Shown: positions 23,880 to 49,560 of the stretch, piece after piece | Numbering within the stretch: the first letter of the stretch is position 1 | Layout of the letters: the number at the start of each line of letters is the position of its first letter | Assembly: GCA_964016885.1 (NCBI GenBank) | Contig: OZ024745.1 | Location: 132,866,001 to 132,930,000 of the forward strand | From: Eledone cirrhosa | Taxonomy: Eukaryota | Length of the DNA stretch: 64,000 nt | Direction: 5' to 3' | The notes under the pieces: generated by a model | The model's database searches: none | The model's input: only the letters and a program-made list of their open reading frames with translations | Told to the model about the DNA's origin: nothing | Position numbers and translations under genes: made by a program

Positions 23880-24690
23880 CAGTCTATTTATATATTTTGA
23901 TGTTTTCCTCTTTTAGTTGGAATTCTACAATGTAGCAGGGGATAGCGGGAGAGAATAGCGGCGGTAGTGATATTGAGGCAGCGGCGGCGTAGGCGGTGCT
24001 GTGCTAGCAGCAACTAGCAGGAGGTAGTGGGAGAGAATAGCGGCGGTAGCGATAGTGAGGCAGCGGTGGTGGTGATGTGGTCGTATTACTGTAGTGATGG
24101 TGTTGAAGTTGGAGTAGAAATTTGAGTCGACTTGACCAGAGTTTTCATCGTGGTAGTGGTGGTGGTATTGGTGGTGACATTATCTTTAGTGAAATTACCG
24201 TTAGTCGTGTATATGTGTTGACATTTACCCATAATATTGGAATTAAACATTTTGTTAAAACTAAAACTTGAGGCAATAGTAATAGTAATTATTATTATTA
24301 TTATGCTGAGATTGGTGGTGGTGGTGAAATTGCCGTTATCGGGCTGTTGTGTTTAGTGTACACAGCGGGGTGATAAGGTACGTGGTGTATCTGGTTTCTG
24401 ATATTGGTGAAATTGCTGTTATTTGGCTGTTCTATATAGTGTAGACAGAGGGGTTTTCTTCCATTTATAACCATTTTCTTTTTGAATATAAAATGTATAA
24501 TACAAAATTGAATATTTGAGCGATATAACAATATATTGCGGATCCGAATTCTTTGGGACTCAAGCTGGATGTTTTATGCAACATTTGTACTAAGAATTGT
24601 TATTTCATAATTGATTTAAATATGTTAAAAAATTAAAACTTACGGGATTGATTTCTCGACCTTCTATCCACCATGTGTGTCTTCTTCCCT
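23880..24690. repeat. ~0.8 kb unit X, copy 1 (paralog at 41436-42116)
   Basis: Colinear similarity from TCTATTTATATATTTTG through a GGT-rich block to GTCTTCTTCCCTTA. Confidence 0.85.
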
Positions 24691-24742
24691 TATAATAATA
24701 ATGTGATAATAATAATGTCTCACATTATTATTGTTATTGTTA

Positions 24743-25240
24743 TTCCTTGAATCTCAGTCATTGATGTTGGTTAACTGGAAAGTCCGTTGGATTGAATATC
24801 AAGCCACTACCTGCAGCCTCAGATATTCAGGACGTATCGGAGGGTTCTTGCCGTTCCAAGCAAGCATGCCTTTTGAAGCGTTCCAAAAAGCGTGAAGGGG
24901 CCGATTTTCTTTAACCATCCCTGGAAACCTTTGGAGATAGTCCCCAGTGCGCCTATGACAATCGGGATCACTTTGACTTCATGGCAGTTCCAAATCCTTT
25001 TCACCTCCCACTTTAGGTCCTGGTATCGGTTAATTTTCTCCCTCTCCTTCTCTTGCACTCTCGTGTCGAACGGGCAGGCCACATCCACAATCAGGCACGA
25101 TCTTTTTTCTTTGTCCACAACCACCAGGTCAGGTCTATTGTGTTCCAGTTTTTTGTCCGTCTGTATCCTAAAATCCCACAGCACCTTTACCTGACTGTTC
25201 TCCATCACCGCCTCTGGCCTATGCTCATACCATTTCTCAG
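24743..25240 (-). mobile_element. R4/Dong-like family A1 copy 1, 5'-truncated (RLE domain plus 3' UTR)
   Basis: RPDLVVVDKEKRSCLIVDVACPFD...EKINRYQDL (PD-(D/E)xK RLE); (TAA)n tail. Confidence 0.96.
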
Positions 25241-25263
25241 TATTATTATTATTGTTATTGTTA

Positions 25264-26566
25264 TTCCTTGAATCTCAGTCATTGATGTTGGTTAACTGGA
25301 AAGTCCGTTGGATTGAATATCAAGCCACTTCCTGCAGCCTCAGATATTCAGGACGTATCGGAGGGTTCTTGCCGTTCCAAGCAAGCATGCCTTTTGAAGC
25401 GTTCCAAAAAGCGTGAAGGGGCCGATTTTCTTTAACCATCCCTGGAAACCTTTGGAGATAGTCCCCAGTGCGCCTATGACAATCGGGATCACTTTGACTT
25501 CATGGCAGTTCCAAATCCTTTTCACCTCCCACTTTAGGTCCTGGTATCGGTTAATTTTCTCCCTCTCCTTCTCTTGCACTCTCGTGTCGAACGGGCAGGC
25601 CACATCCACAATCAGGCACGATCTTTTTTCTTTGTCCACAACCACCAGGTCAGGTCTATTGTGTTCCAGTTTTTTGTCCGTCTGTATCCTAAAATCCCAC
25701 AGCACCTTCACCTGACTGTTCTCCATCACCGCCTCTGGCCTATGCTCATACCATTTCTCAGAATGTGGTAGATTGTTTACTTTGCACAGGTGCCAGTGGA
25801 TCACCCTGCCCATCACATCGTGTCTCCAGCCCTTATAGTGGGTCTGGGCTAGGTGTTTACACTCGGACACAATGTGAGCCACAGTCTCCTCTCTCTCTCC
25901 ACAGATCCTGCACAGTGGGCTAGCCTCCTCCTTGTAGATATGGTGCTTCAACCACTTCGTTTTGAGGGCCTGCTCCTGCGCAGCCATTAGCATTCTTTCT
26001 GTAGCCTTTTTGAGGTCTCCTCTTCTCAACCAGTTCCATGTCTGTGGATCTCTAAATTCAGCTTTCTCAAAGAAGGTACTATGAAGGGATTTTCCCTTAA
26101 GGCTGCTCTTCCTCCTTGATGTTATTTCCTCCTTGGATATCCCCTGGCCTACTGTCCCCTCCTTCAGTACAGCTCTGAGCATTGGCTCCTTACTATAGGT
26201 CACGTATTTGTATAGGTTGTTTTTCTCCATCTGAACACAGTCCTCTATGCTGATAAGACCTCTTCCACCCTCAGTTCTCCTTAGGTAGAGTCTATCGACA
26301 TCACTCCTCTTGTGGAACATGTTGTAGATAGTCAATAGCTTCCTAGTCTTCCTATCCATTTCTTTTTGTTCAGCAACATTCCATCTCAGAATTCCCGCAC
26401 TGTACCTAATAATAGACACAGCTCGGGAATTTACTGCGCTTATGGCATTTCTGCTGTTCAGATGTGACTTCAATACGCTCCTTACTCTCCGAATGTATTC
26501 AGTTCTTAACAATTCCTTCATTTTTTTGTTCTTTATGCCATCAGCCTCCAGAACGCCCAAATACTT

Positions 26567-26570
<4 letters not shown>
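25264..26570 (-). mobile_element. R4/Dong-like family A1 copy 2, 5'-truncated, intact 406-aa reading frame
   Basis: RT thumb GGRGL, CCHC knuckle [21 protein letters not shown] domain; (TAA)n on both sides. Confidence 0.97.
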
Positions 26571-26607
<37 letters not shown>

Positions 26608-26620
26608 GTTGTTATTGTTA

Positions 26621-26831
26621 TTCCTTGAATCTCAGTCATTGATGTTGGTTAACTGGAAAGTCCGTTGGATTGAATATCAAGCCACTACCTGCAGCCTCAG
26701 ATATTCAGGACGTATCGGAGGGTTCTTGCTGTTCCAAGCAAGCATGCCTTTTGAAGCGTTCCAAAAAGCGTGAAGGGGCCGATTTTCTTTAACCATCCCC
26801 GGAAACCTTTGGTGATAGTCCCCAGTGCGCC

Positions 26832-26834
<3 letters not shown>
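26621..26834 (-). mobile_element. R4/Dong-like family A1 copy 3, ~210 bp 3' stub
   Basis: IGALGTITKGFRGWLKK...YVLNI* plus 3' UTR between (TAA)n tracts. Confidence 0.95.
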
Positions 26835-26865
<31 letters not shown>

Positions 26866-26871
26866 GTTATT

Positions 26872-29370
26872 ACTCCTTGAGTCTCAGTCATTGATGTTAG
26901 TTAACTGAAAAGTTTGTTGGAATGAATATCAAGCCATTACCTGCAGCCTCAGATATTCAGGACGTATCGGAGGGTTCTTGCTGTTGCCAGCAAGCATGCC
27001 TTTTGAAGCGTTCCAAAAAGTGTGAAGGGGCCGATTTTCTTTAACCATCCCTGGAAACTTTTGGAGATAGTCCCCAGTGCGCCTATGACAATCGGGATCA
27101 CTTTGACTTCATGGCAGTTCCAAATCCTTTTTACCTCCCACTTTAAGTCCTGGTATCGGTTAATTGTCTCCCTCTCCTTCTCTTGCACTCTCGTGTCGAA
27201 TGGGCAGGCCACATCCACAATCAGGCACGATCTTTTTCCTTTGTCCACAACCACCAGGTCAGGTCTATTGTGTTCCAGTTTCTTGTCCGTCTGTATCCTA
27301 AAATCCCACAGTACCTTCACCTGATCGTTCTCTATCACCGCCTCTGGCTTATGCTCATACCATTTCTCAGAATGTGGTAAACTGTTTACTTTGCACAGGT
27401 GCCAGTGGCTCACCCTGCCCATCACATCATATCTCCAGCCCTTATAGTGGGTCTGGGCTAGGTGTTTACACTCGGATACAATGTGAGCCACAGTCTCCTC
27501 TCTCTCTCCACAGATCCTGCACAGTGGGCTAGCCTCCTCCTTGTAAATATGGTGTTTCAACAACTTCGTTTTGAGAGCCTGCTCCTGCGCAGACATTAAC
27601 ATTCCTTCTGTAGCCTTTTTAAGGTCTCCTCTTCTCAACCAGTTCCATGTCTGTGGATCTCTAAATTCAGTGTTCTCAAAGAAGGTACTTGAAGGGATTT
27701 TTCCTGACGGCTGCTCTTTCTCCTTGATGTTATTTCCTCCTTGGACATCCCCTGGCCTATTGTCCCCTCCTTCAGTACAGTTCTGAGCATTGGCTCCTTA
27801 CTATCAGTCACGTATTTGTGTAGGTTGTTTTTCTCCATCTGAACACAGTCCTCTATGCTGATAAGACCTCTTCCACCCTCAGATATCCTTAAGTAGAGTC
27901 TATCGACATCACTCCTCTTGTGGAAAATGTTGTAGATAGTCAATAGCTTCCTAGTCTTCCTATCCATTTCTTTTTGTTCAGCAACATTCCATCTCAGAAT
28001 TCCCGCACTGTACCTAATAATAGACACAGCTCGGGAATTTACTGCGCTTATGGCATTTCTGCTGTTCAGATGTGACTTCAATACGCTCCTTACTCTCCGA
28101 ATGTATTCAGTTCTTAACAATTCCCTCATTTTTTTGTTCTTTATGCCATCAGCCTCCAGAACGCCCAAATACTTGTATCCTTCCTCAGCGTCAATTTCCT
28201 TTATCATCTCACCTGTTGGTATCTGGATTCCGTTACTTCTGCTCAGACTACCCCTCCTCATCACAATGACTCCACACTTACTAATACCAAATTGCATACA
28301 TATATCACTGCTGAAAATACGGACAGTGTCAACAAGCACATCCAACTCCTTCTCACTCTTCCCGAAGAGCTTAAGATCGTCCATGAAGAGGAGGTGATTG
28401 ATGGTAAGCCCTCCCTTTCCCAACCTGTATCCTGCTCTCACTTTTCGCAGTACACTGGTCAGGGGCATCAGGGCAAGGACAATCAACAGAGGGGACAGGC
28501 TATCTCCCTGGAAGATACCTCTCTTGATCTTCACGCTTCCCAAGGATTCTCCAGTTGATGTCAACTCTGTTTCCCAGGACCTCATACTTTTTCCCAACAA
28601 CTGTCTGATGTTATCTGCCACCTTGAAGATCTCCAGGCTTTTGGTGATCCAAGAATGAGGCACCATATCAAATGCCTTTCTGTAGTCTATCCATCCCATG
28701 GCAAGATCAGTGTGTCTCCTCCTGCAATTCGCCATTACCATCTTATCAATAAGTAACTAGTCCTTTGTACCACGTGACTTCTTTCGGCATCCTTTCTGTT
28801 CGTCCGGTAACAAGTTGCTTGTGTGGAGGTGATGGTAGATTTCCTCAGACACAATGCTTGTCAACAGTTCCCACATTACGGACAGACATGTGATAGGTCT
28901 ATAGTTGGTAACATCATTACCCTTGGTTCGGTCTTTCATTATCAGAACTGTGGTACCTTTTGTCAACCACTCTGGTACCTCACCTGACATCAAGCAGTCA
29001 TTGAACATGGTTGTCAGTTTCGGGTGGAGGGATGTTATATTTTTAATCCAATACCCCTGCACACCATCTGGGCCTGGTGATTTCCAGTTGGTTAGTTTTT
29101 TGGCCTGCCCCTTAAGAGTTTCAACTGTGATACTCAAATCAGTTTGTTGGTGTGCCTGTTCACTAATCTCCTTCTGTACTGTCTCAATCCACACTGCCTG
29201 GTCATTATGTCTAACATCCTGCTCCCATATTCTTCTCCAAATGTTTTAGTTTGTTCCGCCTCAGGGTTTAAGTCGTTGCCTCTTTCTTTCCCCTCAAGCT
29301 GTCTAAAAAAGCATCTTCTGGTTGTTGTCGAACATGCGGTTCTGTTTATACTGACTGACTCTGTTCTCTG
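26872..29370 (-). mobile_element. R4/Dong-like family A1 copy 4, 2.5 kb, 5'-truncated, frameshifted
   Basis: Full RT ([42 protein letters not shown]), zinc knuckle and RLE. Confidence 0.97.
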
Positions 29371-29446
29371 TTATTGTTATTATTATTATTATTAGTAGTA
29401 GTATTATTATTATTGTTGTTATTGTTGTTGTTGTTATTGTTGTTGC

Positions 29447-29504
<58 letters not shown>

Positions 29505-29625
29505 GGTGGTGGTGGTGGTGGTGGTGGTGGTGGTGGTGGTGGTGGCGGCGGCGGCGGCAGCGGCGGTGTTGTTGTTGTTGTTGTTTTTATTACTAAAACT
29601 TCTACTACTACTACTATCATCATGA
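29371..29625. repeat. Compound trinucleotide microsatellite TTA/TAG/TTG/GTG/GCG/CTA
   Basis: Direct reading; source of poly-N/T/P/L/V pseudo-ORFs. Confidence 0.97.
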
Positions 29626-29884: not shown

Positions 29885-29944
<60 letters not shown>

Positions 29945-31190: not shown

Positions 31191-32224
31191 CACTTTTGAT
31201 TGCAGCAACTACGGCAATAATATTTATACGTCCCTGAACATTTACAATATTCTTTATAAGTACATTTACATTCCATTTTAACAGTTTTCATCTTGGATTT
31301 TCATTAAAACTGTTTTTATTGGTGAATATAGTTTGCCACACTTTAAAGTAAGAGTAGCAACGCTCTTATACGTTACATTACTGATATCTGTCAAAAGAAA
31401 CTTTACAATATTCACTTATCCCCATTCCTAAATAAATGCCTCAGTAAAAAAGAACTGTTATCCTCAACAAACTGAAATTTTATGTAACAGTTTTAGAAAG
31501 CATTCACACTTTCAGTTGTGATCAAACCTGAATGTAACTCATCTCATTCCCTCCTCAATGGAAAATTACAAGGTAAGCCACCACATAACTTTCAACACTC
31601 GGTATATGTTTCAGTTCTATGATACTAAGGTTATTTACTCTTCTTTTAGAAATATTGTTCGGTGGCTGGAAGCACATCAGCTATTCTTCATACACTCTGG
31701 AAGAAGCAAGCCTACTTCAATCGCTGAACAAACATAAATGTAATATAAGCTTAAATACTTTTAGATGTTCGTTTTTAAATATAAGGTTATTAGTTTTGAA
31801 AATTATGATCTTATTAGCGATTGAATTTCATTTCGTTTATTAAAACATGATCACAGCGACTATAATGATTTTTTCTTTTAAGGTCATGTTTAATACTTAA
31901 GAAATGTATCTACATATACTTCGAAGTTATTGATGTAACATTTCAAGTAAGCAAAACGAGAAAACTTGGTGGTGGCCGTGACGCGATCAATGAAATTCTG
32001 CTGCTAGAGATTGAAATAATATGTAACATTGTGAAGCAATTAGATGAGCTTTCCAGGTGAATGTACATACGGTATTTTTAATTTACCATATGTTGTAATC
32101 TGCAATCACAAGTAGATATCGTTTATGTGTGTGATAGCTCACACCTATGCAGGTTTAGCTGGCCTCTTCCAAGGTATATCTTGTTGGAAGTATCTTGGGT
32201 GATTTATTGATAGGCACACCAGTC

Positions 32225-32376
32225 CTATCATCTCATTTCTACAGTTGAGTAAACTGGAGCAACGTGAAATAAAGTGTCTTGCTCAAGGAAACAACACATC
32301 ACCCGGTCCAAGAATTGAACTCACAACCTTTCGATTGCAAGCCCAATTCTCTAACCACTAAGCCATGCGCTTTCAC
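32225..32376 (-). mobile_element. tRNA-headed SINE (not S1)
   Basis: Minus strand: A box TGGCTTAGTGG, B box GAGTTCAATTC, then TTCCTTGAGCAAGACACTTTATTTCACG as in 30985-31190. Confidence 0.8.
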
Positions 32377-33269
32377 CTAGATACGTTTTGTATTGCTTCG
32401 TATGATATTTTTCAATTACGCCTGAGATGATTTTATAGGAATCTGATCTCAAACATATATATTTGAAACATATCCGTATATTTTAAAATGGCTCCAATCA
32501 CTATGTCAATACGTTATTGCTGCATTATATATACAAGATGCTAGAAGAGTGTATAACATGTGTATCTATATTTACATAGAAAACTATAACAGTTAAATTA
32601 ATAGGTTGAATTGCGTAATTTCTGCTCTGAAAGAACTTTAAATCACGGTAATTGTACATCTCTAAATTATTGTTCACCTTACGATAAATATTTCCCAGAC
32701 GTATACGTACAAGAGACGAGTATTTTGTACATTTTCATGTTAAATCAGCCAATCCAACTATGTTATTTTATCATTATAATTGTACACACTATACACTAAT
32801 CTTGCAACGATCATGTATTCCAGTAAGGGTATTGTATAACTCTAAACTCCATTCATAAACGATTGTATTTGATCAAAATATCAACAATTATTTAGACAGG
32901 CAACCCAAATAAGTAGGCTCTTGATAAATGTAGACATCACTTCAATTTAGCTTTGCAAAATTATTCCTAATTTATTCTAGATGAACAGCCAATGAACTCA
33001 GTCATCCAAAACCGTTTGGAGTTTTAGTATATTGAAAGCAAACAGTAAGAATAAATTGATGTTTATGAACGATTTAACGCTTCAATTTCTTCAGCGTTCT
33101 TCATTGCTGATATAAAACAAAAAACGGATTCTTCCGCTAAATGTAAAGTAGCGAGAAACCAATTTCTTCTATTTTCTTTTTATATGTTTGCCCCTCAAAA
33201 CATTTGAACATTTTTAATATCTTTAATTATTTTCTGCTATTATATCTAGACCGCTTTTTAAATTAGTCG

Positions 33270-34189: not shown

Positions 34190-34529
34190 CGCCGATAAAA
34201 TAAAGTTCCAGTAGCACACTGGGGTCAGTTTATTAAACTGACCCCAGTCTTTCGGCCCTCCCCAAATTTGTCCGCCTTGTCTCTGAATCAGAAACCATTA
34301 TTAAGGGCGGTGGATTGGCAGTGCGGTAGATCGTCGGACACAATGCTTTGCAGCATTGAGTTACTCCGCTTTATGATCTGTGTTCAAATCCCTCCGGAGT
34401 TAGCTTTGTCTTTCCTCCTTCCTCCTTATGGGGTCGATAAAATAAAGCAGCAGTACCGTACTGGAGTCGATTTAATCGATTTCCACTCTCCACAAATATC
34501 TGGCATTGTGCCTATACTAGAAATCATTA
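34190..34529 (+). mobile_element. Two tandem S1-related SINEs (3' half 34190-34302; full copy 34304-34529)
   Basis: First ends AGAAACCATTATTAA and is directly followed by head GGGCGGTGGATTGGCAG; second ends AGAAATCATTAC. Confidence 0.85.
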
Positions 34530-34530
34530 C

Positions 34531-34984
34531 TTGAAAGGATTGAAGACGGACACTTTCCTCTTCGGCGAATTTCTGATTAACTTTTTCAAGTTTCACTTGA
34601 AGAGGAAGATCAGGGTGGAGAGGCAAGTGCTGTCTTGTAGTAAGTTTGTTGAACGGGAGGTGAAAGTGGTGAGTCTGCTCCGAGTGAACGGGTCTGCTCT
34701 GAGTATGCGCCTGTAGACTGAGGGGGGGGGGTCTGAGAGAGCACTTGCCCTGGTGGTTGGGTAGCCGTTGTCTTTTGTGTGGTTCTCGCCATGAGTGACT
34801 CTCGGAAGTTTCCCCACCATTGGGGAATTTTTGTTGTTTGAATTTCTTAATATATTTATGTTGTTTTTTGTTACAACCCTTTTTACCCGAACCAAACCCA
34901 CTTTGTATCGTCCTGCACCGTTCTGTGCCGTCTCTAATGTCTTTCTTCATGTAAGCCCTTGTGGCCAATAAAGAAACCATTATT
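34531..34984 (+). mobile_element. Tx1-clade LINE 3' fragment (older subfamily)
   Basis: LKGLKTDTFLFGEFLINFFKFHLKRKIRVE aligns to the C-terminus of 42237-43799; 3' end AATAAAGAAACCATTATT. Confidence 0.9.
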
Positions 34985-34992
34985 CTTATTAT

Positions 34993-35207
34993 ATCGGTAG
35001 ATGGTCAGACGTCATGATAAGCATCATAGAGTTACGGCCCTTTAAGAACCCAGTTCAAATCCCACCGGGGTTAAATTTGCCTTTCATCCTTACGGGGTCG
35101 ATAAAATAAAGTATCAGTCATGCTCTGGGGTCTATTTAATCGAATTTCCCCTCCTCCAAAAATTGCTGGCCTTGTGCCTATAAAAGATACAATTATTATT
35201 ATTATTA
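34993..35207 (+). mobile_element. S1-related SINE, slightly 5'-truncated, with (ATT)n tail
   Basis: B box AGTTCAAATCC, S1 core, 3' end GGCCTTGTGCCTATAAAAGATACAATTATTATT. Confidence 0.88.
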
Positions 35208-35701
35208 CAGTTGCATTTAACTTGCTTTATGTTCATACGAGTTATCACCAAGTCACAACCAGTGACCTCAAGAGACAACAAGTTCCGCCATGTTCAAGAA
35301 AGAACATACATGCACACACATACATCTTTAGGTGTTTATACTTGTGATGTAATTATATTGACAGAATCTAACTTAGTATATGGGCAGTTCCCTTTAGTAC
35401 TATATTTTGTATTTCTCCTATACGCGGGTTTCCTGGTATTTGTGATAAGTAATCATTAGCCCCCTTACGTATCATTCCTAGAGCACCTACAACCACTGGT
35501 ATTGTTTTAGTTGTCAACTTCCACATTTTTCCAATTTCTATCTCCATGTCTTTATACTTGCTCAATTTTTCAGATGTTTTTATAGATACATTCTTGTCTA
35601 TTGGAACGGACATATCAATTAGCAGGCATACCATCTTTTTAAAGTCCTTCAGTATTATATCAGGTCTATTTGCATCTAATTTTTGGTCTGTTTGGATGCT
35701 A
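35208..35701 (-). mobile_element. R4/Dong-like family B copy 1, 5'-truncated
   Basis: RPDIILKD..CLLIDMSVPID..EKLSKYKD..IPVVVGALG RLE plus 3' UTR, between (TAA)n tracts. Confidence 0.93.
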
Positions 35702-35714
35702 TTATTATTATTAT

Positions 35715-37156
35715 TTGCATTTATCTTGCTTTATGTTCATACGAGTTATCACCAACTCACAACCAGTGACCTCAAGAGACAACAAGGTCCGCCATGTTCA
35801 AGAAAGAACATACATACACACACATGCATCTTTAGGTGTTTAGACTTGTGACGGACATATCAATTAGCAGGGTACCCTCTTTTTAAAGTCCTTCAGTATT
35901 ATATCAGGTCTATTTGCATCTATGTTTCGGTCTGTTTGGATGCTAAAGTTCCACAAGATTGAGATGTGATCTTTTTCATGTATGGGAGGTGGTTGATGCT
36001 CCCACCAATTCTTTTGATGGGTCAAGTCAAAATGCCTACACATTATCCAATGTATGTAATGTGCAGCTCTGTCATGCCTGTTTAGGTATTCGGTTGGAGC
36101 TATAGGACTGCACATTGAAATTATATCGTCAATGGTCCCTGGTTGTTTTTTACATACACGGCATAATGGGTTGCATCCATTTTTTAATGTTGGCTTGATA
36201 ATTTTTTGTTGGCAGACACTGATCTTGTACTGATATAATCAGTCCTTCAGTCTCCGATTTCAGTCCAGGGGTTGCGAACCACTGATGGGTTAAGGTTTTG
36301 TCAACATCAGGATTATTAGCTCTTTCTGGGTATTTTCCATACAGAGGTTTGTCTTGCCATTTCTTAGCCGTAGCAGTTCTTTCTTTGCAGTTACTTTTAC
36401 CTGTTTTGCTTTTTCTGTGTTTTCCATTTCAGCAGTAAATGGGACTTCTGATATGTGTAGTCCATTACTGTATCTTTGTGCATCTTTTGTAATGGAATAT
36501 GATCTTTTGGTGCTTTCGTGTTTCAAAACGAGTTTGATCATCCAATCATGTGATTCCCTTAGGTATGTAGATAATCCAATTCCTGCAATTTTTCTACGCA
36601 ATATCTAACTGCATTAACCCACGTCCTCCTTCTTTCCTAGGGAGATATATTCTATCTGTATCTGCCTTAAGGTGATGCATTCTGTGCATGGTTAAGAATT
36701 TTCGAATTTTTGTATCGAGCCTACGGATCTCTGTGCTTGAACAGTTGATGACATTGTAACTGTAGGTTACTACTGGTATGGCAAGCGTGTTTATGGCATC
36801 GATAATATACCTTGCATTCAATTCCGTTCTTAAGATTGCACTTACTCTGCGGTAACATTCCTTCCATATCGTTTCCCTCATTGTCGAGTGCTTGATTCCT
36901 CTTGTTTCCTCTTGATCAAGTTCTCTTATCACATTCCCCCGATCAAGATTAATGTCTGAACTTTTCAACAGCTTTCCTCTGGTGAACGTTGCTTTGGCGC
37001 ATTTATCTAGTCCAAACTCCATTTTAATGTCATCACTGAACAGCCCCACAGTGGATAATAGCCCTTGCAATTGTTCATCATTTTTTGCAAATAGTTTCAG
37101 GTCATACATGTAGAACAAGTGATTAATGGTTTTGTCATAGACTTTATATCCATGTT
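35715..37156 (-). mobile_element. R4/Dong-like family B copy 2, 5'-truncated, internal deletion at ~35850
   Basis: FYMYDLKLF, GGRGL, zinc knuckle region and start of RLE; same 3' UTR as the other B copies. Confidence 0.93.
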
Positions 37157-37188: not shown

Positions 37189-40100
37189 CATTTGCATTTA
37201 TCTTGCTTTATGTTCATACGAGTTATCACCAAGTCACAACCAGTGACCTCAAGAGACAACAAGGTCCGCCATGTTCAAGAAAGAACATACATATTCACAC
37301 ATGCATCTTTAGTGTTTAGACTTGTGATGTACTTATATTGACAGAATCTTCCTTAGTATATGGGCAGTTCCCATTAGTACTATCTTTTGTATTTCTCCTA
37401 TACGCGGGTTTCCTGGGATTTGCGATATGTAATCATTAGACCCCTTAGGTATCATTCCCAGAGCGCCTACAACCACTGGTATTGTTTTAGTTCTCAATTT
37501 CCACATTTTTCCAATTTCTATCAACAGGTCCTTATACTTGCTCAATTTTTTCTAATGTTTTTATAGATACATTCTTGTCTATTGGAACAGACATATCAAT
37601 TAGCAGGCATACCGTCTTTTGAAAGTCTTTCAATATTATATCAGGTCTGGTTGCATCTATTTTTCGGTCTGTTTGGATGCTAAAGTTCCACAAGATTGAG
37701 ATGTGATCTTTTTCAAGTATGGGAGGTGGTTGATGCTCCCCCAATTCTTTTGATGGGGCAGGTCAAAATGCTTACACATTATCCAATGTATGTATTGTGC
37801 AGCTCTGTCATGCCTGTTTAGGTATTCGGTTGGAGCTATAGGACTGCACATTGAAATTATATGGTCAATGGTCTCTGGTTGTTTTTTGCATACACGGCAT
37901 AATGGGCTGCACCCATTTTTTATTATGTTGGCTTGGTAATTTTTTGTTGGCAGACACTGATCTTGTGCCGATATAATCAGTCCTTCAGTCTCCGATTTCA
38001 GTCCAGAGGATGCCAACCAATGATGGGTTAAAGTTTTGTCAACATCAGGATTGTTAGCTCGCTCTGGGTATTTTCCATACAGAGGCTTTTCTTGCCATTT
38101 CTTAACCAGTTTCTGTAGCAGTTCTTTCTTTGCAGTTACTTTTACCTGCTTTGCTTTTTCTGTGTTTTCCATTTCAGCAGTAAATGGGACTTCTGAAATT
38201 TGTAGTCCATTACTGTATCTTTGTGCATCTTTTGTAATGGAATATGATCTTTTGATGCTTTCGTGTTTCAAAACGAGTTTGATCATCCAATCATGTGATT
38301 CCCTTAGATATGTAGATAATCCAATTGTTGCAGTTTTCAACGCAATGTCTAACTGGATTAACCCACGTCCTCCTTCTTTCCTAGGGAGATATATTCTATC
38401 TATATCTGCCCTAGGGTGATGCATTCTGTGCATGGTTAAGAATTTTCGAATTTTTGTATCGAGCCTACGGATCTCTGTGCTTGACCAGTTGATGACATTG
38501 TAACTGTAGGTTACTACTGGTATGGCAAGCGTGTTTATGGCATCGATCCTATTCCTTGCATTCAATTCCGTTCTTAAGATTGCTCTTATTCTGCGGTAAC
38601 ATTCCTTCCTTATCCTTTCCCTCATTGTCGAGTGCTTGATTCCGTCTCCTTCACAAACACCTAGATATTTGTAAGTTTTTTCTTGATCAAGTTCTCTTAT
38701 CACGTTCCCCCGATCAAGATTAATGTCTGAACTCTTCAGCAGCTTTCATCTGGTCAACGTTGCTTTGGCGCATTTATCTAGTCCAAACTCCATTTTAATG
38801 TCATCACTGAACTGCATCACAGTGGATAATAGCCCTTGCAATTGTTCATCATTTTTTGCAAATAGTTTCAGGTCATCCATGTAGAACAGGGGATTAATGG
38901 TTTTGTCATAGACTTTATATCCATGTTTTGTTTCATTGAGCATTTTACTTAATGGTATAAGTGCGATGCAGAATAAAAGCTGTGATAAAGAGTCACCCTG
39001 AAAAATTCCACAATTAATATTAACTTCTCCAGCTTCCAGTGATTTTGTTTCACTATTCAAAAGGAGTGTCGTTTTCCATGTCTTCATACTGAATGACAAA
39101 AACCTCCTGACAACGGCGGATACTTTGAAAATCTCTAAACATTTTTCAATCCAACTGTGTGGCAAACTATCAAATGCTTTTTTATAATCTATCCAAGCAA
39201 TCGATAGATTTTTGTGTCTATTATGACAATCTTCCAGTATCATTTTGTTAACCGAAGCTGATCCTTACAGCCATATGAGCCTCGTTTACACCCTTTCTGC
39301 TCAATGGGAAATAGGTCATTTGTTATCAGGTGGTCATATGTGTATTCAGTTAGGACTGATGTTAAAATTTTATACATTGTGGTCAAGCAAGTTATCGGTC
39401 TGTAATTTTTGGGATTGTTTGTCTCATCATTCCTCGGAAGCAGGAATGTAATGCCGTTAACTAGCCATGAAGGTATCTTTTCTGGCTCCTTAACTATTTC
39501 ATTGTAAAGTTGGGCTAACAGCTCATGAGACTCTGTGAAGGCATTTATCCAAAAGTTTTGTATTTTGTCTTTTCCTGGGGATTTCCATTTGCTGGTTTTT
39601 CTTAGAGCCAAGCGCAACTGTTCAACTGTTATATTTTCCCATGTTTGTTCCTCAAGGTGAGCTGTATCTTTCATTTGTCTGTCTATCCATGGGGCATGTA
39701 TGTTATGAACTTTTTCTTCGGCCCAGATCTTTTCCCAGAATTCTTGCACTTCCTCCTTGGGTGGTATTGATTTAGCAGTTATTGTTGACTTACCAATTTT
39801 TCTGTAGAAGTTTCTTTGGTTGTTTTTGAACATATTATTGTCCTTATAGAATCTAGATCGTTTTTCAAAGCGCCTTATACGAGCAGCTTTGGCCGACACT
39901 TTTTGCTTGATTATTTCTATCAGCATGTCTATGTCACATGTTGATTTTATACTGTACTTTATTTTCAATTTTCTAAGTTTAGTTTGTTTAACATGTTCAC
40001 CTACTTTATAGTTTGTTAAAATTTCTATGTCAGATCGGAGAAGGTTTATTTGGCGATTGATGTTTTCTTGCCAAGTAGATTTCTTGTGGGAATTCCTTTG

Positions 40101-41160
40101 TTTCTTCATCTTCACTCCACATAAGTGAGTGGTGACTTTAGCCGATGCATAATAGAGATGATTTAAATCAGTAATGTTTAGTTTGTTTGTGATGATAATG
40201 TTTTTGAGAATTATGTTAGTCTTGTGTATTATCTTTTGGTTTTGTTTGGAGTTCTAGATCTTAGGGAGGGTGTCTTGTTTCCCCATGTCAGATTCTTTCA
40301 TTTTCATCCATTCGATCATAATTCCAATCTTCAAGTTGGCAAGTTCATTCTCATTCATTTCTTTATCATTTACGATCTCATTATTTTCATTTGGAGTTTC
40401 ATCCTGAGCATGCACTCCCTCCACTTTTTCGATCCTTTCTCTAATTTGTTCTGTTTCCAGTGATTCCGCCCCAACCCTGGGATTCGAAGTGTTACAGTTT
40501 ACCTCGTTTTCACTGACACATGTTTCATTTTCCCTTCGCTGACTTTGTGCTAATAGCTTGATCTGATCAATTTCTATATCAGTTAGTAACTTTTTTCTTA
40601 CAATATTTCTTCGTATGTTGGCTAGTTAGTTACTGTCAATATAGCCTCTGTTTTCGGGATGTTCCTTTTTCCAGTTGATATATGTCTGTTCTGTATTCGA
40701 TGTATTTGATGGGTAGTACATGGCAGTGTAGAAAGCCTCAAGGACTTCTTTATTATCTTCCCTTGACCATTTTTCTCTCTTTTTCTTTGGATTTCTTGGT
40801 GGTGAGCATGGAGGGCCAACAGTAGGATTATTCCGGTTATGGGAGGTCTCCAGCTCCGAAGTGATGGGAAGGTTTGAACCATTAGCTGATTTTTCGACCC
40901 CAGTCTGGTTCCTCTCTGAGCGACGCGGCCCTTTTTTACCCGGGTGACGGCTGATCCGGTATGAGATTTTATCATTAGACATTTACTTTATTTTTTCGCG
41001 TTTTATCCTTATCCGCCAAGGGGTAATCATTTCGTGTTACCACTTCTAGAACGAGTGTCAACCAAGACTAGAGGGGTCGTTATCCCCTAGAGACACGACT
41101 ATTCCCTGCCGGCCGCCATCCCGGTATTTCTTGGTCACGGGGTTTTCTTTTTGTTGTTTT
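37189..41160 (-). mobile_element. R4/Dong-like family B copy 3, apparently full length (~4 kb), ORF broken by a few frameshifts/stops
   Basis: ATG 40982, Myb-like REKWSREDNKEVLEAFY, RT (NYRPIT, WIDYKKAFD, GIFQGDSLS, FYMDDLKLF), CRVCKKQPETIDHIISMC, RPDII...IDMSVP; stop at 37333; (TAA)n tail. Confidence 0.96.
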
Positions 41161-41227
41161 TTTTTAAATTGTTATTATCATGAGTGGTTCCTTAATGTGA
41201 ACATTGCGTGGCTTAAGAATGAAATTA

Positions 41228-41282
41228 TTAATAATTGTCTCCACTCCAGGCACAAGGCCAGCAATCACCCAGTGCATTACAA
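41228..41282 (-). mobile_element. SINE S1 3' stub
   Basis: GGCACAAGGCCAGCAATCACCCAGTGCATTAC on +. Confidence 0.75.
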
Positions 41283-41435
41283 TAATATAATATACTTTTT
41301 GTTGTAGTTGGCTGTTATTGTTGTTGGCTATGTCGGTGGTGGTGCCGGGGCTTTTTATATTGTTGGTGAGGAAGGGGTGAGCCAGCAGTCCCATAGTTGT
41401 TGATATTGTCGTTTGGCCTTGGCCAGGTCACTAAG

Positions 41436-42115
41436 TCAATCTATTTATATATTTTGCTAGCCTCTCCCTTGTCTAGTGATACCGCCATCTTCCCCTTTCT
41501 CTCTCAAGTTAACAGGGGAATAGTGGTGGTAGCATTGAAGGAGTGGTGGCGGCGGGGAGATGTGGGAGACAGTAGCGGCGGTATCGATACTGAGACAGTG
41601 GTGGTGGTGGTGATGTCGATACCGAGGCAGTGGTGGTGGTGACGTGATCGTATTACTGTAGTGATGGTGTTGTAGCGGTGGTAGCAATGAAGGAGTGGTG
41701 GCGGCGGTGATGGGATAGTGGTGGTAATGATGGCAGTAGTGAGTGGTGGTGATGAAATTGCCGTTATCTGGCTGTTGTGTTTAGTGTACACAGAGAGGTG
41801 ATGGGGTAGGTGTTGTATCTAGTTTCTGGTATTGTTTGGCTGTTCTATATAGCGTAGACAGAGGGGGGGGGGTTCTTCTTCCATTTATAGCCATTTTCTT
41901 TTTTGAATATACAATGTACAATACAAAGTTGAATATTTGAATATTTGAGCCTTATAACAATATATTTTGGGTCCGAATTTTTTGGGGCTCAAGCCGGATG
42001 CTTTACGTAGCATTTGTACTAAGAGTTGTTATTTCACAAATGATATAAATGTTAAAAATTCAAAACTTACGGGAGCGATTTCATGACCTTCCGTCACCTC
42101 GTGCGTCTTCTTCCC

Positions 42116-42116
<1 letters not shown>
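41436..42116. repeat. Unit X, copy 2
   Basis: Colinear with 23880-24690; ends GTCTTCTTCCCT directly into (TTA)n. Confidence 0.85.
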
Positions 42117-42152
<36 letters not shown>

Positions 42153-42153
<1 letters not shown>

Positions 42154-44059
42154 TCGATAGGGTCGACCATCGTTACCTAGCGGCAGTCCTGAGGGCGGCT
42201 GGCTTTGGGCCCGTCTTCAGAGGCTGGATCGCTGCCATGCACAGCGACATCTGCTCTGTGGTGAGAGTGAACGGTCACCTGTCGGAACCGTTCAACATCA
42301 TGCGCTCGGTCCGCCAAGGATGTCCCCTCTCGTCCCTCTTGTACGTATTGACTCTCGAGCCATTACTGCACAAACTGGAGACGTTGAGGGGGGTCCCGCG
42401 CGAACTAGGATGCGGAAGATCCGTGTCAGCATATGCGGACGATGTCACCGTAGTGGTGTCGAACGCCAAACACATCGAGGCGATCGGCACTACACTAAGA
42501 GAATACGAAGCGGTGACAGGAGCAATGATCAACCAGGAAAAGTCAGTGGGCCTGCAGCTCGGCACCTGGAGAAGCAGGTCCATGCCGTCCAACAGCGTCG
42601 TCGGGCGCTGGACGGACGGACCGGTTAAATTGCTAGGGGTCTGGTTCGGTCCGGACCTCCAGACGGACAAAAACTGGGACGAGGTGACGAGCAGGGTGGC
42701 TTCTCTCACCCAGAAATGGGCGGAGAGGAAGCTATCACTGAAAGGTCGAGCGGAGGTGGCTAACGCGTACATCGCGTCTGTCATCTGCTACCGCCTAACC
42801 GTCGTACCTTGTCCTAAGCCTCGCCTGACTGCGCTGGAGCGTTTGCTCTTTCGCTTTTTGTGGAAGGGACGTGCTCCGATGGTCAGGCGGTCCATCTGTT
42901 GTCAACACCCGCTACGTGGAGGGCTGGGCATGCGGTGGCTGATGATGCGCAGGCACGCGCTCAGGCTACGACATCTCCACCTCTTCCTCGACGGTGATCA
43001 GGTGTGGTCGCCGTTTGCTAGACGCGTTTTTCCCCAGCTCGTTTCCTTGACGGAGCTGCAGTCCTGGGTCAAGCGAAGACCGAGAGGGAGCGCCTGGAGA
43101 CTGGAATGTCTTCAGGCGCTCACAGCCCTCGACCAATCGGGCAATGTGATCGGTGGAAACTCCACCTCGGCGTTCTATAGAGGATTAGTGGAGGGGAAGA
43201 GCGACGACGTACTTGGGGAAACTCTAGGCGTCGACGAAAATCAACTAGCCAATCTCTTCGGAAGAACTTTCGGGCCGGGGCCTATGGACAACTTCCAGAA
43301 ATCTCTGGCCTGGCAGTGCTACCGAGGAGCCTTGCCAGTTCGGGATAAACTCTACAGGCATGGAGGTGCCGTCATCCGGGCATGTCCGAGATGCGCGCAG
43401 GGCGACGAAACCGTCCTGCACGCACTCGTCCAGTGTCCGAAAATTGCTGACTTGTGGGTTTATGTCGAACACCTGCTGTCGCGTTTAGGACGGATCCAGC
43501 TATCATCTGAGTCTATCGTGAGGATTGCCCCGCCCTCCTCCTTTAGCCGGGAAGGGCAGGCAGTTTTTATCTGTCTGGTGGCCATGGCGAAAGAGATAGT
43601 ATGGTGGACACGTTTGAAAGGGCTGAAGACGAGCACTTACCTCTTCGGTGATGCTCTGATTGACTTTTTCAAATTTCATTTGAAAAGGAAAATCAGAGTA
43701 GAGAAGGAAGTGCTCTCTTTCCAGCATTTTGTTGAAAGATGGGTGAGAGAAGCAAGAATGGCCCGAGTGAATGGGCCGACTCTGAGTATATATCTGTAAA
43801 CTAAAGGTGGAAAACTGGGAGAGGGCACTTGCCTTGGTGGTCAGGGTCATTGTGGCTTTTTACTGGGCTTTCTCCACAAATGTCCCTCCGAAGTCTCCCC
43901 CCTATTGGGGAATTTTTCATTGTTATTTTCATTGTTATTTTTGTTACATCCTCTGTTTTTGTTTTTTTACACGCAGAAATGCCCATTTGTACCGTCCTGC
44001 ATTGTCCTGCACTGTCCTTAATGTCTACTTTATGTAAACCCTTGTGGTTAATAAAGAAA

Positions 44060-44061
<2 letters not shown>
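42153..44061 (+). mobile_element. Tx1/L1-clade LINE, 5'-truncated, uninterrupted ORF2 portion (RT plus zf-RVT), flanked by (TTA)n on both sides
   Basis: FDRVDHRYL, SVRQGCPLSSLLYVL, YADDVT, KLLGVWF, RKLSLKGRAEVAN, CPRCAQGDETVLHALVQC; stop at 43799; AATAAA then (ATT)n. Confidence 0.95.
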
Positions 44062-44124
<63 letters not shown>

Positions 44125-44130
44125 GTTATT

Positions 44131-46076
44131 ACTCCTTGAGTCTCAGTCATTGATGTTAGTTAACTGGAAAGTTTGTTGGAATGAGTATCAAGCCACTACC
44201 TGCAGCCTCAGATATTCAGGACGTATCGGAGGGTTCTTGCTGTTCCCAGCAAGCATGCCTTTTGAAGCGTTACAAAATGCGTGAAGGGGCCGATTTTCTT
44301 TAACCATCCCTGGAAACCTTTGGAGATAGTCCCCAGTGCGCCTATGACAATCGGGATCACTTTGACTTCATGGCAGTTCCAAATCCTCTTTACTTCCCAC
44401 TTTAAGTCTTGGTATCGGTTAATTTTCTCCCTCTCCTTATCTTACACTCTCGTGTCGAATGGGCAGGCCACATCCACAATCAGGCACGATCTTTTTTCAT
44501 TGTCCACAACCACTAGGTCAGGTCTATTGTGTTCCAGTTTCTTCTCCGTCTGTATCCTAAAATCCCACAGCACCTTCACCTGATCGTTCTCTATCACCGC
44601 CTCTGGCTTATGCTCATACCATTTCTCAGAATGTGGTAAATTGTTTACTTTGCACAGGTGCCAGTGGATCACCCTACCCATCACATCATGTCTTCAGCCC
44701 TTATAGTGGGTCTGGGCTAGGTGTTTACGCTCGGATACAATATGATCCACAGTCTCCTCTCTCTCTCCACAGATCCTGCACAGTGGGCTAGCCTCCTCCT
44801 TGTAAATATGGTGTTTCAACCACTTCGTTTTGAGGGCCTGCTCCTGCGCAGCCATTAACATTCCATCTGTAGCCTTTTTAAGGTCTCCTCTTTTCAACCA
44901 GTTCCATGTCTGTGGATCTCTAAATTCAGTTTTCTCAAAGAAGGTACTATGAAGGGATTTTTCCTGAAGGCTGCTCTTTCTCCTTGATGTTATTTCTTCC
45001 TTGGACACCTCCTGGCCTATTGTCTCCTCCTTCAGTACAGTTCTGAGCATTGGCTCCTTACTATCAGTCACGTATTTGTGAAGGTTGTTTTTCTCTATCT
45101 GAACACAGTCCTCTATGGTGATAAGACCTCTTGCACCCTCAGATCTCCTTAAGTAGAGTCTATCGACATCACTCCTCTTGTGGAACATGTTGTAGATTGT
45201 CAATAGCTTCCTAGTCTTCCTATCCATTTCTTTTTGTTCAGCAACATTCCATCTCAGAATTCCCGCACTGTACCTAATAATAGACACAGCTCGGGAATTT
45301 ACTGCGCTTATGGCATTTCTGCTGTTCAGATGTGACTTCAATACGCTCCTTACTCTCCGAATGTATTCAGTTCTTAACAATTCCTTCATTTTTTTGTTCT
45401 TTATGCCATCAGCCTCCAGAACGCCCAAATACTTGTATCCTTCCTCAGAGTCAATTTCCTTTATCATCTCACCCGTTGGTATATGGATCCCGTTACTTCT
45501 GCTCAACCTACCCCTCATCATCACAATGACTCCACACTTACTAATACCAAATTGCATACATTTATCACTGCTAAAAATACGGACAGTGTCAACAAGCACA
45601 TCCAACTCCTTCTCACTCTTCCCGAAGAGCTTAAGATCGTCCATGAAGAGGAGGTGATTGATGGTAAGCCCTCCCTTTCCCAACCTGTATCCTGCTCTCA
45701 CTTTTCGCAGTACACTGGTCAGGGGCATCAGGGCAAGGACAAACAACAGAGGGGACAGGCTATCTCCCTGTAAGATACCTCTCTTGATCTTCACGCTTCC
45801 CAAGGATTCTCCAGTTGATGTCAACTCTGTTTCCCAGGACCTCATACTTTTGCCCAACAATTGTCTGATGTTATCTGCCACCTTGAAGATCTCCAGGCTT
45901 TTGGTGATCCAAGAATGAGGCACCATGTCAAATGCCTTTCTGTAGTCTATCCATCCCATGGCAAGATCAGTGTGTCTCCTCCTGCAATTCCCCATTACCA
46001 TCTTATCAATAAGTAACTGGTTCTTTGTACCACGTGACTTCTTTCGGCATCCTTTCTGTTCGTCCGGTAACAAGTT
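44131..46076 (-). mobile_element. R4/Dong-like family A1 copy 5, 5'-truncated
   Basis: 470-aa frame with RT and zinc knuckle, then RLE with stops; tail-to-tail with the Tx1 copy across one (TTA)n tract. Confidence 0.96.
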
Positions 46077-46087
46077 TATTATTATTG

Positions 46088-48676
46088 TTCTTTGAGTCTC
46101 AGTCATTGATGTTATTTAACTGGAAAGTTTGTTGTAATGAATATAAAGCCACTACCTGCAGCCTCAGATATTCAGGACGTATCCGAGGGTTATTGCTATT
46201 CCCAGCAAGCATGCCTTTTGAAGTGTTCCAAAAAGCGGAGAGGGACCGATTTTCTTTAACCATCCTTGGAAACTCTTTGAGATAGTACCTAGTGCGTCTA
46301 TGACAATCGGGACCACTTTGACTTCATGGCAGTTCCAAATCCTTTTTACCTCCCACTTTAAGTCCTGGTATCGGTTAATTTTCTCCCTCTCCTTCTCTTG
46401 CACTCTCGTGTCGAATCGGCATGCTACATCCACCATCAGGCACGATCTGTTTCCCTTGTTTCAAAACCACCAGGTCAGGTCTATTGTGTTCCAGTTTCTT
46501 GTCCCTCTGTATCCTAAAATCCCATAACACTTCACCTGATCGTTTTTTATCACGGACTCTGGCTTATGCTCATACCATTACTCAGAATGTGGTAAATTGT
46601 ATACTTTGCATTGGTGCTAGTGGATCACCCTGCCCATCACATCATGTCTCCAGCCTTCATAGTGAGTCTGGGCTAGGTGTTTACACTCTGATACAATGTG
46701 AGCCACAGTCTCCTCTCTCTCTCCACAGGGCCTGCTCTTCCGCAGCCATTATCATTCCTTCTGTAGCCTTTTTAAGGTCTCCTCTTTTCAACCAGTTCCA
46801 TGTCTGTGGATCTCTAAATTCAGTCTTCTCAAAGAAGGTACTATGAAGGGATTTATCATGAAGGTTGCTCTTTCTCCTTGTTGTTATTTCCTCCCTGGAC
46901 ATCCACTAGTCTATTGTCCTCTCCTTCGGTACAATTCTGAGCATTGGCTCCCTACTATCAGTCACGTATTTGTGTAGGTTGTTCTTTCCATCTGAACACA
47001 ATCCTCTATGCTGATAAGACCTCTTCCACCTTCAGTTCTCCTGAAGTAGAGTCTATCGACATCACTTCTCTTGTGGGACATGTTGTAGATAGTCAATAGC
47101 TTCCTAGTCTTCCTATCCATTTCTTTTTGTTCAGCGACATTCCATCTCAACATTCCATACTCCAGCAACATTCCATACTGTTCAGATGTGAGTTTAATGC
47201 GATCCTTACACTCCGAATGTATTCAGATCGTATCAATTCCTTCATTTTTTTGTTCTTGATGTCATCAGCCTCCAGAACACTTACATATTTGTATTCTTCT
47301 TCAGTGTCAATTTCCTTTATCGTCTCACTTGTTGGTACCTGGATTCCGTTGCTTCTGCTCAATTTATCCCTCTTCACCACAAGTACTCCACACTTACTAA
47401 TACCAAATTGCATACATATATCATTGCTGAAAATACGGACAGTGTCAACAAGCACATTCAACTCCTTTTCACTCTTCCCGAAGAGCTTAAGATCGTCAAT
47501 GAAGAGGAGGTGATTGATGTTAAGCTTTTCCTTTCCCAACTTGTATCCTGCTCTCACCTTTCGTAGTATAATAGTCAGGGGCATCACAGCAAGGACAAAC
47601 AAAAGAGGGGACAGACTATCTCCCTGGAAGATACCTCTCTTGATCTTCACGCCTCCCAAGGATTCTCCGCCCGATGTTAACTCTGTTTTCCAGGACTTCA
47701 TACTTTTACTCAGCAACTGTCTGATGTTATCTGCCACCTTGAAGATCTCTAGGCTTTTGGTTATCCAAGAATGACGTACCATGTCGAATGCCTTTTTGTA
47801 GTCTATCCATCCCACGGCAAGACCAGTGTGTCTCCTCCTGCAATTCCTCATTACCATCTTATCAATAAGTAACTGGTCCTTTGTACCATGGCATTTCTTT
47901 CGGCATCCTTTCTGTTCGTCCGGTAACAAGTTGTTTATGTGGAGGTGATGGTAGATTTCCTCATACACAATGCTTGTTAATAGGTCTATATTTGGTAACA
48001 TCATAACCCTTGGTTCGGTCTTTCATTACCAGAATTGTGGTACCTTTTGTCAACCCCTCTGGTACCTCACCTGAAATCAAGCAGTCATTTAACATGGTTG
48101 TCGGTTTCGGTTGAAGGGATGTTACATTTTTAATCCAATACCCCTGCACACCATCTGGGCCTGGTGATTTCCAGTTGGTTAGTTTTCTGGCCTGCCCCAA
48201 GAGTTTCAACTGTGATACTCAAATCTGTTTGTTGGTGTGCCTGTTCACTAATCTCCTTTTGTACTGTCTCAATCCACACTACCTGATCATTATGTCTAAC
48301 ATCCTGCTCCCATATTCCTCTCCAGAATGTCTTAGTTTGTTCCGCCTGAGGGATCAAGTCGTTGCCTCTTTCTTTCCCTTCAAGCTGTCCAAACATCTTC
48401 CGGTTGTTGTCAAACATGCGGTTCTGTTTATACTGACTGACTCTCTTCTCGTATCGCCTAATATTTGCGCTCTTTGCTACAATGTGTTGCTTCAATTCCT
48501 ATATGATAATATTTAGCTATTTCCTCCTAGTTTTGTACTTTATTTCCAGTCTATTTTTAGTGTCTATGTTTTGAAGTGTCCCATTCAGTAGGGACTCAAG
48601 CTTTCCAATGTCATTTCCCTGATTTGACCATTCAGTTGTTTCTTCCACCAAGGTTCTGATCTTTCTTGTTTGTTGT
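46088..48676 (-). mobile_element. R4/Dong-like subfamily A2 copy, 5'-truncated, heavily decayed
   Basis: RT HLLFIDDLKLF and RLE remnants; diagnostic residues shared with 21030-23690 (KELIR, GGVKIKR, TIILRK). Confidence 0.94.
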
Positions 48677-48691
48677 GTCCTATTATTATTA

Positions 48692-49512
48692 TCTTCGGAA
48701 GAACTTGTTGTGTCCTATTATTATTATCTTCGGAAGAACTTTCGGGACGGGGCCTATGGACAACTTCCAGAAATCCCTGCCCTGGCAGTGCTACAGAGGA
48801 GCCTTGCCAGTTCGGGATAAACTCTACAGGCATGGAGGTGCCGTCAGCCGGACATGTCTGAGATGCGCGCAGGGCGACGAAACCGTCCTGCACACACTCG
48901 TCCAGTATCCGAGAATTGCTGACTTGTGGGTTTATGTCGAACAACTGCTGTCCCGTATAGGACGGATCCGGCTATCAGCTGAGTCCATCGTGAGGATTGC
49001 CCCGCCCTCTTCGTTTAGCCGGGAAGGCAGTTTTTATCTATTTGGTGACCATGGCGAAAGAGATAGTATGGTGGACACGTTTAAAAGGGCTGAAGACGAG
49101 CACTTACCTCTTCGGTGATGCCCTGATTAACGTTTTCAAATTTCATTTGAAAAGGAAAATCAGAGTAGAGAAGGAAGTGTTCTCTTCCCAGCATTTTGTT
49201 GAAAGATGGGTGAGAGAAGCAAGAATGGCTCGAGTGAATGGGCCTACTCTGAGTATGTGTCTGTAAATTAAAGGTGGAAAACTGGGTGAGGGCACTTGCC
49301 TTGGTGGTCAGGGTCACTGTGGCCTTTTACTGGGCTTTCTCCACAAATGTCCCCCCGAAGTCTGCCACCTTATTGGGGAATTTTTCATTGTTATTTTCAT
49401 TACATCCTCTGTTTTTGTTTTTTACACGCAGAAATGCCCATGTGTACCGTCCTGTATTGTCCTGTACTGTCCTTAATGTCTACTTTATGTAAACCCTTGA
49501 GGTTAATAAACA

Positions 49513-49516
<4 letters not shown>
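48692..49516 (+). mobile_element. Tx1-clade LINE 3' fragment with (TTA)n tail
   Basis: Colinear with 43255-44061; head-to-head with the A2 copy. Confidence 0.95.

Positions 49517-49560
<44 letters not shown>

Follow-up and report, generated by a model that had tools for sequence, protein, structure and literature searches.

The question raised by a 64,000-nucleotide stretch of the Eledone cirrhosa genome (contig OZ024745.1, positions 132,866,001 to 132,930,000; G000:C5:132866001-132930000 within the 3.0-Gb assembly; hereafter the window) is whether retroelements with unrelated endonucleases use one microsatellite as a common landing site. Between positions 24690 and 49560 of the window, long interspersed elements (LINEs) of two R4/Dong-like families with a restriction-like endonuclease (RLE; families A and B) lie in rows, or trains, with copies of a Tx1-like LINE with an apurinic-type endonuclease (APE; family T) and with a short interspersed element (SINE). 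An earlier note on this DNA had proposed that all of these elements share and regenerate one repeat, (TAA/TTA)n. The anatomy of the window was established by self-BLAST and by direct reading of the junctions, and the families were followed through the assembly. The phenomenon is real and general in this genome: there is a three-family LINE guild with strict strand polarity, and the SINE is a looser passenger.

Repeat tracts at the 5' junctions

Genome-wide loci were the top 30 matches for each query, from which the copy in the window and evident duplicates had been removed, and long copies were extended; the candidates numbered 530-2,086 per query, which are minimum values. A 5' junction was scored as positive under a strict rule if at least three repeat units ended no more than 8 nt from it. 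This rule was satisfied by 20 of 28 A copies, 19 of 28 B copies, 13 of 14 young T copies and 22 of 28 older T-like copies; within the set, a 5' end was not visible in 12 young T copies or in single copies of A and of older T. The same rule scored none of 24 copies of the control, a SINE of another family whose tail is of the CA type, and at least three ATT units were found just upstream of 0.14% of random positions (20,000 draws from a background set of 40 evenly placed 10-kb windows, 400 kb in all). The 5' flanks, at which the earlier note had said that its proposal could fail, were thus enriched for the repeat.

Seven of the T copies that had lacked a visible 5' end were fetched afterwards, and the tract was present in all seven. 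Among 60 distinct heads of full-length T copies, 59 were preceded by sequence ending in ATT and 56 by at least 17 nt of perfect repeat; for a second T subfamily with a different first open reading frame (ORF1) the ATT-ending count was 23/23. An RNA leader is excluded at most of the A and B junctions counted, because the elements there are truncated at the 5' end. The sharing of (TAA/TTA)n at both junctions by RLE-type (A, B) and APE-type (T) LINEs is supported genome-wide.

These counts bear directly on the suggestion that insertion is unspecific, that the elements supply their own tails and that the 5' tracts were either retained passively or joined through microhomology in DNA rich in repeats. 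Microhomology of 1-3 nt with the tract does occur at many junctions, and the SINE needs ATTAT only. However, the suggestion is very improbable, given tracts at approximately 70% or more of the 5' junctions against 0.14% in the background and 0/24 in the control, a strict polarity, and T copies outside tracts that have no tail.

Polarity, duplications and probable serial insertion

A copy was scored as having a neighbour when a guild LINE (A, B, T or older T-like) lay no more than 130 bp from its 3' end. Such a neighbour was found for 53 of 112 LINE copies (A, 17/29; B, 15/28; T, 12/26; older T, 9/29), compared to 1/29 for the SINE and 0/24 for the control. On their own strands A and B read (TAA)n, and T and the SINE read (ATT)n; the statement in the earlier note that every element ends in the same repeat therefore holds only when strand is specified. 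All 53 neighbouring pairs obeyed one rule, whereby A/B next to A/B and T next to T point in the same direction and A/B next to T point in opposite directions. Mixed-family, opposite-strand neighbours made up 20 of the 53. In the 400-kb background there were 14 merged tracts of at least six units, a small sample, of which seven touched A, B or T LINEs and three more touched the SINE. Since half of these tracts touch a LINE, random choice among tracts suffices for clustering of approximately 47%, and no extra attraction is needed. The earlier claim that RLE-type and APE-type elements share the microsatellite was upheld by the tracts at both junctions and by this co-clustering.

The trains are stacks of A, B and T elements in (TAA/TTA)n, in fixed opposite orientations, and serial target-primed insertion is their likely origin. 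In the standard geometry of target-primed insertion, priming would take place on the TTA strand for A and B and on the AAT strand for T; the predicted nicks lie in these same strands and would be made in each case by an endonuclease specific for the repeat. Every insertion would leave repeat at both of its sides, so that one tract would become two, the next element would land beside the previous one and pile-up in trains would be likely. The extra repeat that accompanies T would derive from a target duplication of 15-19 nt, and possibly from a repeat-bearing 5' leader, rather than from a long RNA tail.

Four T insertions in non-tract sites had duplications of 19, 16, 17-19 and 15 nt (loci L069, L167, L085 and L159, respectively). 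The duplications begin with ATTATT immediately after the last base of the element, with no added tail. What looks like a tail in T, and likewise in the SINE, is thus largely DNA of the target. The proposal that each insertion recreates the target with its own tail consequently had to be given up for T and the SINE. In A and B, repeat borders the element on either side; a duplication is therefore not definable, and tail and target sequence are not separable. The 18-nt floor seen at T heads agrees with the duplication length; an added RNA leader at these heads is possible. When leader and duplication were compared in 54 paired full-length T copies, the 3' tract was interrupted in eight and the interruption was mirrored at the 5' side in none. 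Two of the eight tracts then run into A tails, two come from one array, and 4/60 heads are themselves interrupted; later mutation can explain the eight.

Could the trains instead have arisen mainly from single events, such as template jumping or read-through multimers, or from later unequal recombination? Copies A1, A2 and A3 of the window are 98-99% alike and lie head-to-tail, and near-identical tandem arrays of 6-kb T copies exist, some with an identical non-ATT spacer on different contigs. Neither kind of origin, however, can yield the mixed-family opposite-strand neighbours, the range of 88-99.7% identity within one train or the tracts found 5' of solitary copies. Both are therefore improbable as the main source of the trains; template jumping or recombination probably accounts for some same-family runs only.

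The T arrays were seen at G000:C28:122873877-122898000 (L091-L094) and also at L386-L389, where full-length T copies, 99-100% identical, are arranged head-to-tail. Their spacers are either 18-nt (ATT)6 or longer non-ATT sequence, and the arrays could result from recombination, read-through or assembly effects. A multi-copy repeat of no assigned class that has an internal (ATT)n was repeatedly entered by T (L338:850-1150; flanks in L005, L009 and L016). Identical flanks at distant T loci had been considered as products of 3' transduction. This was mostly rejected, since the flank is also present, with no T beside it, in one of the evenly placed windows (L338) and is therefore another repeat with an internal (ATT)n; read-through may lie behind the spacers common to T arrays on two contigs.

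Several observations count against serial insertion into the tract. The strict rule was missed by 8/28 A, 9/28 B and 6/28 older T-like copies; by eye, approximately three of the A and five of the B misses have a tract slightly farther upstream, and the remainder join within other elements or without a tract. Truncated copies of older T scored 6/12 under the strict rule and eight by eye, the others being inversions or joins within other repeats. On the 5' side there was one exception to the polarity, a B head next to which an A copy faces the "wrong" way (L088/L369). No empty site was seen among the reads and contigs aligned to window positions 41000-43400, and the top-30 sampling favours young copies.

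The SINE and the organisation of the window

The SINE was counted by the earlier note as a full member of the tract-sharing group, a view that the data did not sustain. At least three ATT units lay upstream of only 6/29 top matches and 4/24 copies from the evenly placed windows; the SINE is not tract-targeting and prefers ATTAT only. Its perfect tails measured only 4-8 nt in 23/29 genomic copies. Duplications of 16-21 nt, mostly starting with ATTAT, were present in 11/29 top matches and 9/24 window copies, in a search that allowed no more than one mismatch and had no shuffled control. Motifs resembling A and B boxes are visible in the SINE, which from its general likeness may belong to the MetaSINE superfamily, in which a 66-bp Meta domain follows a tRNA-derived head.

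When three SINE ends were compared to LINE ends, the last 22 nt matched the end of T1, a window copy of T (shuffle p = 0.0013, 0.004 and 0.0003), and there was no such match to A, B or the control (p≥0.72). We infer that a T-type LINE is the likely driver, because strand polarity, duplication length and the ATTAT start are common to T and the SINE. The match to another window copy, T2, was weaker (p = 0.10, 0.015 and 0.002) and the third of the three SINE ends had been picked for looking similar, both of which temper this assignment, as does the uncontrolled duplication search. The SINE would then be mobilised by T-type enzymes with a looser choice of site, and its main role would be that of an occasional seed. 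A less likely alternative, which is compatible with the account given for A, B and T, is that another LINE with an ATT-like end, for example of the Nimb/I or CR1-Zenon type, drives the SINE. Excerpts of one study have bivalve Meta-domain SINEs matching the tails of Nimb and CR1-Zenon (PMC11481361), and the match to T-type ends covers only 22 nt; against this stand the same three features that the SINE has in common with T.

A broader and more tentative reading, to which we give somewhat less than an even chance, would join all four families. A currently active and undescribed Tx1-type lineage with an evolved (ATT)n endonuclease would have converged on the Dong target from the opposite strand; the SINE would seed ATTAT sites, and duplications plus a repeat-bearing 5' leader would lengthen them. 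The outcome would be a four-family self-feeding system behind most long AAT microsatellites, 10/14 of the sampled tracts touching one of its members.

Within the range covered by the earlier note its inventory was recovered by self-BLAST, with six A copies (four at 24724-29368 and two at 44123-48680), three B copies and three Tx1-type copies, together with two complete SINEs, at 34304 and 34992. It had missed a seventh A copy, A0, which lies outside that range and extends the first train leftward. The three trains that it described are in fact two, because 41140-42115 is the 5' untranslated region (UTR) of copy B3, a sequence that precedes the B body in the majority of 30 B 5'-end loci, so that the former second and third trains are one. 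A short (TTA)n at nearly every junction was likewise only partly confirmed: at least three perfect TTA units were read at 11/16 window junctions and the other five are irregular. Among these, the junctions between a SINE fragment and SINE, SINE and T1, and T1 and SINE have one or two units or an interrupted tract, and the A6/T3 junction has three units within a 35-bp duplication.

Train 1 (21033-29368) consists of A0 and A1-A4, head-to-tail on the minus strand. A0 (21033-24690) has a complete 5' end with approximately 1.1 kb of 5' UTR and is 92% identical to a near-intact A ORF region; it lacks the tail and approximately 950 nt of the 3' part. It is followed by an irregular junction of short inverted (TAA)3 pieces and then the A1 tail (24691-24736). 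The 5'-truncated A1 (24737-25243) is 99.4% identical over 520 bp to A2 (25245-26567), which is also 5'-truncated, encodes a CCHC motif and an RLE-like C-terminus and has (TTA)3 at its left. A (TTA)12 tract precedes A3, a 223-bp 3' fragment of A (26568-26833), and a (TTA)10 tract precedes the 5'-truncated A4 (26834-29368). The train ends at a compound TTA/TTG/TGG/GGC microsatellite (29371-29616), which was likely its original host target.

Train 2 (34.2-49.6 kb) begins with a SINE 3' fragment followed by a tRNA-type SINE with the box-like motifs (34304-34532, plus strand), T1, a 3' fragment of a divergent Tx1-type subfamily that is 69% identical to T3 (34531-34978, plus), and a SINE that ends in a (TTA)5 common to the B1 tail (34992-35207, plus). 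Three B copies follow on the minus strand: the 5'-truncated B1 (35208-35701; 94% identity to intact B), (TTA)4 and the truncated B2 with an internal deletion near 35851 (35702-37154), and (TTA)11 and the full-length B3 with an interrupted ORF (37155-42115; 98%). Many genomic copies of B have a 50-bp SINE 3' fragment fixed in their 5' UTR, which in the window lies at 41231-41280. The 5' end of B3 and the 5' truncation of T2 lie head-to-head over (TTA)12 (42116-42151). T2 itself (42152-44061, plus) is a young 5'-truncated Tx1-like copy that encodes the reverse transcriptase (RT) and zf-RVT domains and is 99.7% identical to an intact 6,030-bp copy; it lies tail-to-tail with A5 over a tract of (ATT)20 or more (44062-44131).

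The 5'-truncated A5 (44126-46075, minus; 97% identity) is followed by (TTA)3 and A6, an older truncated copy with deletions (46076-48680, minus; 88-91%). A 35-bp tandem duplication at 48670-48741 covers the A6 5' end, (TTA)3 and the start of T3, an older truncated Tx1-like copy that carries (TTA)14 (48727-49560, plus; 92%). An (AGT)37 microsatellite (49571-49681), likely part of a host compound repeat, continues the T3 tract. Across the window, identities to intact genomic copies range from 88 to 99.7%, a spread expected of insertions that differ in age.

That these trains are assembly artefacts is very unlikely. No contig spans 41000-43400, and the read runs rich in these families are not demonstrably from the locus. 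On the other hand, the copies differ by up to 13% and have distinct truncation points, and junctions of these same types recur at dozens of loci spread over many contigs, with one of the 40 evenly placed windows (L323) among them.

Elsewhere in the window, two further T fragments lie beyond this range (54657-54912 and 55869-56308), one of which ends in an (ACT)n tract and the other is followed by (TTA)4 and a SINE. An old fragment of an A-related element, approximately 70% identical to A, was found at 9581-9954. The CA-tail SINE used as the control (32125-32380, minus strand; also L222-L245) has duplications that are shorter by eye, and the degenerate sequence at 57060-58000 resembles, and may be, a remnant of a Tc1/mariner transposase.

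Family identity and known systems

An intact B ORF of 1,216 amino acids (L369) and an A frame of 1,045 amino acids (L351) contained RVT_1 as the only domain match, without APE. B aligned to R2 proteins only, over residues 450-1160 and through the RLE region. CCHC and RPD..D..EK..KY motifs were read in both families, the latter of which we take to be the PD-(D/E)xK motif of the restriction-like endonuclease. A and B proteins are 39% identical. The single RT ORF, the C-terminal CCHC and RLE motifs and the (TAA)n target of both agree with the R4/Dong clade. There was no Pfam match to an N-terminal Myb/SANT domain at E values up to 1; in excerpts of a published survey, its detection in such elements needed HHpred (PMC7998251). 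A 5' HDV-like ribozyme is reported for Dong and R4 (PMC3774820). Approximately 400-480 bp of 5' UTR is common to A and B at about 80% identity (window 24315-24689 versus 41743-42115), which suggests exchange of 5' ends between them.

The intact 6,030-bp T copy has an ORF1 with a CCHC knuckle and an ORF2 with APE, RT and zf-RVT domains; for ORF2 the top match in the PDB was human L1 ORF2p (E = 1e-52). The knuckle, read in translation as C-x2-C-x4-H-x4-C, had no Pfam match; a CCHC-bearing ORF1 is typical of Tx1. T resembles Tx1-type elements in its two ORFs, target preference and target-site duplication. Homolog searches returned no sequence named R4 or Dong for A and B, and no named Tx1 among 54 homologs of T; the labels "R4/Dong-like" and "Tx1-like" were given on the basis of architecture and target. 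Young T copies (L095-L110, L392-L398) are mostly full length and at least 99% identical, and both ORFs are intact in one or more of them, a sign that T was active very recently. In the second T subfamily (L376, L377, L379, L384 and L385) ORF2 is common from position 2265 and the 5' end and ORF1 region differ, with the same (ATT)n target; an ORF1 swap is possible.

These results add (ATT)n to the target specificities of Tx1-type elements, and they offer what would be two unrelated endonucleases naturally paired on one simple repeat, each reading it from a different strand; the intact T and B copies allow this to be tested in vitro. They also suggest how local hotspots of retrotransposons could form and why AAT microsatellites and LINEs are linked in such genomes, propose a Tx1-type partner for an abundant SINE, and are relevant to marker design and assembly.

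Published systems are cited here from excerpts of the papers concerned. Insects, molluscs and cnidarians are reported to have Dong elements inserted in (TAA)n (PMC3812793, PMC7998251), and those of the Dong/R4 type (Bombyx mori Dong, DongAg, DongBg, Darwinula Dong1/2) resemble A and B in their single ORF with RT, CCHC and RLE. Here, unlike in Dong, two lineages have part of their 5' UTR in common and are interleaved with an APE element. Dong-R4 and L1-Tx1 are among the recently active LINEs of Octopus vulgaris, whose transposable element hotspots are described in the same excerpts without this mechanism (PMC13282606). Tx1 families that use microsatellites include Kibi on (TC)n, Koshi on (TTC)n and crocodilian families on (TTCC)n/(TTTC)n (PMC4494074). 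T is, like Kibi and Koshi, a two-ORF APE element of the L1 group with a microsatellite target, but that target is Dong's tract. No Tx1-like family with (ATT)n as its target came up in the literature searched; Repbase, Kojima and Fujiwara 2004 and the PMC4494074 supplements lie outside that scope and may list one.

The earlier note had known of no previous description of RLE, APE and SINE elements sharing a target in this way. No RLE/APE pair on one microsatellite was found in the literature searched, and the available parts of PMC8869645, PMC3747384, PMC10294476 and PMC4824008 added nothing on shared microsatellite targets. However, RLE/APE target sharing as such has been published: Utopia (RLE) and Keno (Tx1, APE) evolved in parallel to use one target in U2 snRNA genes (PMC4640811). 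Insertion consumes the low-copy U2 gene, whereas here the target is a simple repeat that remains at either side of the element, and the two groups are oppositely oriented. A further parallel is provided by TRAS1, a member of the R1 clade. TRAS1 and SART1 enter one repeat, (TTAGG)n, in opposite directions (PMC7265360); both are R1-clade APE elements and the repeat is telomeric, while the present elements have different endonuclease types and use dispersed tracts. In RTE elements, duplication starts match the microsatellite-like 3' ends (PMC6007223). Tx1-Mar was proposed as the driver of SINEU from a common target preference (PMC4494074); the target in that case is a Mariner element, and here a tRNA-type SINE has a short 3' match to its candidate LINE. 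Dong on TAA repeats, target sharing by RLE and APE elements and sharing of one repeat in opposite directions are thus already in print, and the guild described here is an extension of these systems, not a new kind of system.

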